Virus record (IMG/VR): IMGVR_UViG_2718218139_000003
Length of the DNA stretch: 37,100 bases
DNA from: a virus
Taxonomy: Duplodnaviria; Heunggongvirae; Uroviricota; Caudoviricetes
Strand: one strand, 5' to 3'
In this document: positions 1 through 822 of the stretch, piece after piece
How positions within the stretch are numbered: the first letter of the stretch is position 1
Layout: each line of letters opens with the position of its first letter
Notes under the pieces: generated by a model
What the model was told of the DNA's origin: nothing
Databases searched by the model: none
Seen by the model: the letters and a program-made list of their open reading frames with translations, nothing else
Translations under genes and position numbers: made by a program

Positions 1-822
1 ATGACTGCTGTAAGCCAAACCGAAACACGATCTTCTGCCAATTTTTCGCTCTTCCGCATCGCTTTTGCGGTTTTTCTCACCTACATGACCGTAGGGCTGC
101 CGTTGCCGGTTATCCCGCTGTTTGTTCATCATGAACTGGGCTATGGCAATACCATGGTCGGCATTGCCGTCGGGATTCAGTTTCTGGCTACGGTGCTGAC
201 GCGTGGCTATGCCGGGCGACTGGCCGATCAATATGGCGCAAAACGTTCGGCGCTTCAGGGGATGTTAGCTTGTGGTCTGGCTGGCGGCGCGTTGCTGCTG
301 GCGGCGATTTTGCCTGTCTCCGCACCGTTCAAATTTGCCCTGTTGGTCATCGGGCGTTTGATTCTTGGGTTTGGTGAAAGCCAGTTACTGACAGGCGCTC
401 TGACCTGGGGGTTAGGCATCGTAGGGGCAAAACACTCTGGCAAAGTGATGTCATGGAATGGAATGGCGATTTACGGTGCCCTCGCTGTTGGTGCTCCGCT
501 TGGCCTGTTGATTCATAGCCATTACGGTTTTGCCGCACTGGCGATCACCACAATGGTATTACCCTTACTGGCGTGGGCCTGTAACGGCACAGTGCGCAAA
601 GTACCGGCCCTGGCGGGAGAACGTCCATCGCTGTGGAGCGTTGTCGGGCTTATCTGGAAACCAGGCGGTTACGCCGCGTTTCAGGATATCGCCCTCGGCG
701 TCTCCGGGCCGCTGGCGGGAATGCTGGCGACCACGTTTGGTTACTCTTCGGTATTTCTTGCCGGGGCGATCTCTGCAGTGCTGGGAATTATTGTCACGAT
801 ACTGTCATTTCGTCGGGGCTAA
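1..822 (+). CDS. yfcJ: MFS-type membrane transporter (YfcJ-like); 273 aa is short for a 12-TM MFS, possibly internally deleted
   Basis: ORF from position 1; N-terminal TM helices and the G-R-L-A-D-Q-Y-G loop motif typical of MFS; convergent 4-bp overlap with the next gene, as I recall for yfcJ-flk in E. coli. Confidence 0.55.

Follow-up and report, generated by a model that had tools for sequence, protein, structure and literature searches.

An internal in-frame deletion in yfcJ, most likely a null allele, in an Escherichia coli O145:H25 clone

The stretch of DNA analysed here, termed the window, is 37,100 nt in length and starts with an open reading frame that resembles an MFS transporter gene and is short for that family. 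This locus raises the questions of whether an internal part of the gene has been lost, whether the short form is a genuine allele and whether its product can still function in transport. The reading frame, positions 1–822 on the plus strand, is uninterrupted from ATG to TAA and consists of 273 codons and a stop codon. The parts of the gene and its neighbour are:

1..822, plus strand: yfcJ allele with an internal deletion of codons 223–341 (open reading frame listing, NF009048 score and comparison with the intact 1179-nt yfcJ)
1..663, plus strand: retained 5′ part, residues 1–221, with TM1–TM6 and the cytoplasmic central loop (100 % identity to nt 1–663 of the intact gene)
664..665, plus strand: deletion junction, GG, shared by the two breakpoints in the intact gene (2-nt microhomology, from the prefix/suffix overlap)
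666..822, plus strand: retained 3′ part, residues 342–392 (TM11, TM12 and cytoplasmic tail) and stop codon (last 159 nt of the intact gene identical)
819..1814, minus strand: flk, the convergent neighbour (331-aa open reading frame; annotated flk in reference genomes; Pfam Flk_N in all carrier loci)

The translated product scores 451.2 bits (E = 2.7e-135) with NF009048, the NCBIfam YfcJ-type model called 'arabinose transporter', which has 392 positions and a cut-off of 364. The match is split into two stretches, the first of which places aa 1–222 on profile positions 1–222, and the 392-position YfcJ profile or reference (NF009048/PRK12382) is not covered end to end, as 119 codons are absent. 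Pfam MFS_1 (PF07690) is matched at 75.5 bits against a gathering threshold of 33.4, and this match covers aa 20–195 only, i.e. profile positions 1–168 of 347, the N-terminal half. MFS motif A, G-x-x-x-D-R/K-x-G-R-R/K, is located in the cytoplasmic loop between TM2 and TM3, and it can be read from the translation of the window gene at aa 72–82. K-12 YfcJ (TCDB 2.A.1.46.6, NF009048) is encoded by the same gene at the same locus. The E. coli paralogue YhhS (TCDB 2.A.1.46.7, NF003477) belongs to the same MFS subfamily and has weak arabinose-related knockout phenotypes similar to those of YfcJ, but it is a full-length 12-helix protein from a different locus, and the window protein reaches only 270 bits with its model, below the cut-off of 374.

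The chromosomal order fabB-yfcJ-flk is conserved. It is the same in annotated references, and fabB is found upstream in the identical loci L002–L004 and L006. The 3′ end of flk overlaps the yfcJ stop codon by 4 nt, and flk is intact; its presence at 819–1814 confirms the chromosomal position of the window gene. By family match and location, 1–822 is evidently the chromosomal E. coli yfcJ, and it is clearly too short. An Rfam search of 1–822 shows no RNA family, and antisense open reading frames of 45–63 aa inside yfcJ are without support.

The extent of the loss is apparent from a base-by-base comparison with an intact reference allele, the 1179-nt, 392-aa yfcJ of strain 2014C-3011 (NZ_CP027591.1, here locus L001, 6001–7179). 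The two alleles agree at every base over the first 665 nt and again over the last 159 nt, and what the window gene lacks is the 357 nt (119 codons) in between. As the prefix and suffix together occupy an 822-nt reading frame, they overlap by 2 nt; the absent reference nucleotides are 666–1022 or, equivalently, 664–1020, and the window protein lacks residues 223–341. The sequence that spans the junction in the 822-nt allele is GGAAACCAGGCGGTTACGCC. Protein alignments to the main E. coli cluster (392 aa) and to orthologues of other genera show the same 119-codon gap. The earlier note on this DNA had suspected an in-frame internal deletion and held that a full-length reference of equal length would speak against it; the reference has 392 aa, not 273, and differs by this single in-frame gap.

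A repeat search of the intact gene found no direct repeats longer than 2 nt at the deletion endpoints. Since the breakpoints have only the dinucleotide GG in common, the 357 bp were probably lost by illegitimate or microhomology-mediated recombination, or by replication slippage, between these two sites. Two other candidates can be set aside. A GGTTA repeat is present near both sites, but joining at it would remove 359 nt and break the frame, and the actual junction lies elsewhere. In a 16-nt inverted repeat with 88 % complementarity, one arm spans the right breakpoint, but the other is ∼70 nt upstream of the left one, a poor fit to the event. Over the 235 nt that precede the ATG there is no difference from the intact allele, so that transcription and translation signals are presumably unchanged, and continued expression of the window allele would be expected. 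In the fabB-yfcJ intergenic region, which precedes the window (L001 5693–6000 compared with L002 9718–10000), there is a difference of one 25-nt unit in a tandem REP-like repeat just downstream of fabB.

Which length is the normal one can be judged from the distribution of the two forms. When the window reading frame is compared by megablast with 5426 complete E. coli genomes, 5422 match over the whole query, and among the matches listed the alignment is always in two pieces that span the 1179 nt of an annotated yfcJ, five of these at 100 % identity. The deleted block itself is present (at least 80 % coverage) in 5422 of the 5426 genomes (>99.9 %). The main E. coli YfcJ cluster has 5934 member sequences and displays 98–99 % protein identity to the window protein over the retained residues. 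Orthologues in E. fergusonii, Citrobacter, Pluralibacter, Scandinavium, Yokenella, Pseudescherichia and others are almost all 392 aa in length with 73–87 % identity, and the full 392–395-aa architecture is found in 28 of the 28 orthologues examined. Because the 392-aa form is spread across genera of the Enterobacteriaceae and the short form is confined to one clone, the former is evidently ancestral and the window form a derived deletion.

More remote relatives of intact YfcJ include the solved 12-helix MFS transporters NorA (7lo7) and YajR (3wdo). Residues 14–387 of intact YfcJ align to NorA (E about 1e-4), a very distant relationship that carries no shared substrate information but supports the canonical two-bundle fold of the intact protein. 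The window protein is without the part that matches most of the C-terminal bundle of NorA and YajR.

Kyte–Doolittle hydropathy gives 12 hydrophobic segments in intact YfcJ and eight in the window protein. An AlphaFold2 model of intact YfcJ, with 28 close orthologues as input, has 12 DSSP helices at a mean pLDDT of 53.8; this is too low for three-dimensional inference or a fold search, and the helix pattern alone was used. The helix boundaries are therefore based on secondary structure and hydropathy, not on a reliable three-dimensional model. Loop charges of the intact protein (16 K+R in cytoplasmic loops against one in periplasmic loops) fit the usual N-in/C-in MFS topology. Residues 223–341 correspond to TM7, TM8, TM9 and TM10 and most of the cytoplasmic loop 10–11, which leaves TM1–6 and TM11–12, eight helices. 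Thus, twelve helices in two six-helix bundles are found in the intact reference and only eight helices in the window protein. The earlier note had put eight to nine transmembrane segments in the 273 aa and had taken 12 in about 390 aa as normal for the family. Hydropathy, model secondary structure and loop charges agree on eight, intact YfcJ has 12 helices in 392 aa, and the topology prediction that the note proposed (12 helices against eight) bears out its suspicion.

The lost block is highly conserved, with 73 of its 119 residues invariant among 28 enterobacterial orthologues. The motif GWMPDRFGG (aa 270–278), the counterpart of motif A in the TM8–TM9 loop, lies inside it and is missing from the window protein; its positions are all invariant or nearly so in the 28 orthologues. 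The cytoplasmic loop after TM6 is fused to the last part of the one that precedes TM11, helices 7–10 being gone. As the deletion joins two cytoplasmic loops, TM11 and TM12 should keep their orientation, and membrane insertion of the eight-helix protein would still be expected, with both termini on the cytoplasmic side.

NCBI, UniRef and Logan all contain exactly this 273-aa protein. It is found on about 24 contigs (five listed NCBI assemblies, 18 similar places and one Logan read-set assembly), in 27 collection blocks. These carriers include the closed chromosome CP014670.1, the 5.2-Mb contig PVMG01000001.1, a 1.4-Mb contig, several drafts and the SRR35759322 read-set assembly, and in every carrier the gene lies between fabB and flk. 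The GenBank entries AOM57114.1 and AOM58785.1 are the exact protein, labelled 'arabinose transporter'; the sequence is already public and annotated as a normal transporter. CP014670 represents EHEC O145:H25 strain CFSAN004177 (PMC5567499). Positions 1–10822 of the window are 100 % identical to two carrier assemblies, and all carrier loci are mutually identical over 13–20 kb, bar seven single-base indels in CP014670. The allele is genuine. The occurrence of one protein in many assemblies with identical flanks of this length points to one recent deletion event that was clonally inherited.

A 48-mer across the junction has no match in 5426 complete RefSeq E. coli genomes, a collection that does not contain CP014583 or CP014670; the absence of a match is explained by the closed O145:H25 genomes being outside this collection. 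In a positive control, a 48-nt query from elsewhere in yfcJ matches 5386 genomes. The notion of a unique or artificial allele, which the null result might have suggested, is rejected by this control and by the public carrier contigs. Five other genomes have intact alleles in which the 822 retained nt are unchanged; over 6.6 kb upstream, the closest one shows just eight substitutions and a difference of one 25-nt repeat unit. Identity to intact alleles and near-identity upstream argue for a recent deletion. The event took place once, in the ancestor of an EHEC O145:H25 clone, with vertical inheritance thereafter. A literature search on yfcJ turned up no mention of the 357-nt deletion allele, and the O145:H25 genome paper mentions neither yfcJ nor flk (PMC5567499).

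Lesions of yfcJ are also found elsewhere in E. coli and Shigella. A 374-aa allele, present in both, is without 18 aa; the 54 nt lost are precisely those that lie between two perfect copies of TTTGGCGGCG. This is a perfect 10-nt direct repeat with a spacing of 54 nt (L001 6772–6835), located inside the block that is deleted from the window. In a 346-aa allele, 46 aa (138 nt) are gone, a loss that matches an imperfect 22-nt repeat with a spacing of 138 nt (L001 6596–6755), also inside that block. The two repeat sites look like slippage hotspots. In addition, the N-terminal half of a 366-aa allele is short of 26 aa, and frameshifts give products of 222 aa (94 contigs), 263 aa and 292 aa. Like the window deletion, these lesions arose independently in particular lineages, and several fall in the C-terminal half. 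They differ in breakpoints and mechanism: direct repeats flank the 54-nt and 138-nt deletions, whereas the 357-nt deletion has 2-nt microhomology only, and the window deletion is the largest in-frame yfcJ loss among those seen. Independent deletions and frameshifts in other lineages show that yfcJ is dispensable in some of them. Because hotspots can explain recurrent lesions, selection for loss is not demonstrated.

MFS transport involves two six-helix bundles that rock around a cavity lined by TM1, TM4, TM7 and TM10. The eight-helix remnant would not be expected to form the two-lobed rocker-switch and cavity that this transport needs. With only two of six helices left in the C-terminal bundle, and with 73 invariant residues gone, the window product is most likely a dead transporter and the gene a null allele. 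The product may or may not be stable in the membrane. A deletion of random length is in frame one time in three, so the preserved frame says nothing about retained function. The retained sequence shows no further mutation; this would also be expected of a very recent event.

The intact protein is a poorly characterised 12-helix MFS transporter (TCDB 2.A.1.46.6). A K-12 yfcJ knockout shows a slight rise in arabinose-reporter signal; over-expression is without effect, and promoter fusions were non-functional (PMC3429515). When both bd oxidases are deleted as well, the K-12 knockout abolishes cytochrome bo3 quinol oxidase activity and aerobic growth; neither a copper or iron uptake defect nor a mechanistic link to bo3 was found for the yfcJ knockout (PMC10588857). 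Loss of yfcJ is tolerated in the wild-type background, which fits decay in the window clone.

How the short form is to be interpreted depends on which of several explanations accounts best for these data. That the 273-aa form came first and the 392-aa form arose from it by an insertion has a negligible probability: a bare length difference permits it and nothing more, while the 392-aa form is present in many Enterobacteriaceae genera at 73–87 % identity, aligns end to end (residues 14–387) with the 12-helix NorA and leaves the 273-aa allele to a single clone, a taxonomic distribution that rules this polarity out. A sequencing or assembly artefact, i.e. a collapsed repeat or mis-join that conceals an intact yfcJ, is exceedingly improbable. 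It could draw on the absence of the junction 48-mer from the 5426 complete RefSeq genomes, but the content of that collection accounts for the absence and short-query searches work; moreover, the same allele is found in the closed chromosome CP014670, in the 5.2-Mb and 1.4-Mb contigs, in drafts and in an independent Logan assembly, and the endpoints have no repeat able to cause a collapse. The 273-aa form might instead be functional and kept by selection, as an eight-helix transporter, a dimerising half-transporter, a regulator or a dominant-negative partner. An in-frame, topology-preserving deletion may leave residual or altered function: two cytoplasmic loops are joined with TM11–12 kept in orientation, nothing is altered in the N-terminal bundle, in motif A or in the promoter-proximal DNA, and secondary inactivating mutations are absent. 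Yet the frame would be preserved by chance in one case out of three, and zero further mutations are what a recent event predicts in a clone identical over 20 kb. All 28 orthologues keep 392–395 aa, with 73 invariant residues in the lost block; two of the four cavity helices known from MFS proteins in general (TM1, 4, 7 and 10) are gone; and the same form occurs in no independent lineage, the window allele being the sole 273-aa sequence found. Together these points make a selected short form very unlikely.

Perhaps inactivation itself was selected in the EHEC lineage, for instance through metabolite efflux or respiratory-chain composition. Repeated independent damage to yfcJ in E. coli and Shigella would agree with this, as would the presence of the 374-aa allele across many clusters and contigs, the 222-aa frameshift on 94 contigs and the knockout phenotypes known in K-12. 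However, two of the other deletions fall exactly between direct repeats, so that mutational hotspots explain the recurrence without selection, and >99.9 % of complete genomes retain the block; the window allele itself is monomorphic and clonal. An adaptive loss is accordingly considered unlikely. The best explanation, and a highly probable one, is a single, recent, clonal 357-bp in-frame deletion in yfcJ whose product is most likely null. The earlier note had read the short gene as a sign of gene decay, a reasonable reading in that the lost block comprises four helices and 73 invariant residues and other lineages are damaged too. The window allele would then represent ordinary lineage-specific decay, probably inactivating, in one pathogenic clone, EHEC O145:H25, although 'neutral decay' is an assumption, since a K-12 yfcJ knockout has a phenotype.

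There is a slim chance of a physiological effect specific to O145:H25, either an impaired bo3-dependent aerobic respiration with reliance on bd oxidases, or a stable eight-helix remnant with residual or interfering activity. The former is conceivable because K-12 needs yfcJ for active bo3 when the bd oxidases are absent (PMC10588857). The window allele offers a natural yfcJ mutant in which the connection reported for YfcJ with cytochrome bo3 oxidase could be studied. In genome annotation, the gene is better termed a probable pseudogene or null allele of yfcJ than 'arabinose transporter'. The 357-bp deletion is also usable as a PCR marker of the O145:H25 clone (822 versus 1179 bp). Beyond correct annotation, its importance is small.

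Several observations concern the remainder of the window and the carrier assemblies. A degraded P2-like prophage occupies 2044–37100, between flk and pdxB. Its genes include those for tail sheath and tube, tape measure, baseplate, capsid, terminase, portal and replication endonuclease, with an integrase at the end, and intact relatives are found at the same site in other STEC genomes, e.g. strain 8479. Beside flk, at 2044–3367 on the minus strand, there is a small module of three genes; strain 2014C-3011 has other genes at the site of this methyltransferase module (TagO-like and zinc-ribbon proteins). Three Rfam matches fall within the prophage, away from yfcJ. These features are:

2044–2835, minus strand: N6/N4 DNA methyltransferase
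about 2780–2977, minus strand: Com-type zinc-ribbon gene, overlapping the methyltransferase gene
about 3227–3367, minus strand: Hok/Gef toxin gene
10423–10621, minus strand: IS009 (Rfam, 192 bits, above the gathering score)
32380–32467, minus strand: C4 antisense RNA (Rfam, 83 bits, above the gathering score)
32503–32577, minus strand: isrK Hfq-binding RNA (Rfam, 66 bits, above the gathering score)

An IS3-family element of 1264 nt is present in two inverted copies that are 100 % identical (3487–4750 and 28269–29532). The first replaces ogr, a gpD-like gene and the 5′ part of the tail-sheath gene, of which a 153-aa remnant is found at 4751–5212 compared with a gene of 1185 nt in strain 8479. 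The second interrupts the replication-endonuclease gene, which encodes 720 aa at 29486–31648 compared with 2841 nt in strain 8479.

The closed chromosome CP014670.1 (L005) differs from L002 by its seven single-base indels over 20.8 kb, compared with otherwise identical sister assemblies, and several of its genes, fabB and the tape-measure gene among them, are uncalled, which suggests that homopolymer errors of long-read sequencing were left uncorrected in this record. In another assembly of the same clone, L003 (GCA_003015365.1), the region 13487–15381 lacks ∼31.7 kb of prophage relative to window positions 4751–36465, and the IS element is joined directly to an integrase fragment and pdxB. 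The gap looks like an IS-mediated loss of the prophage within the clone.
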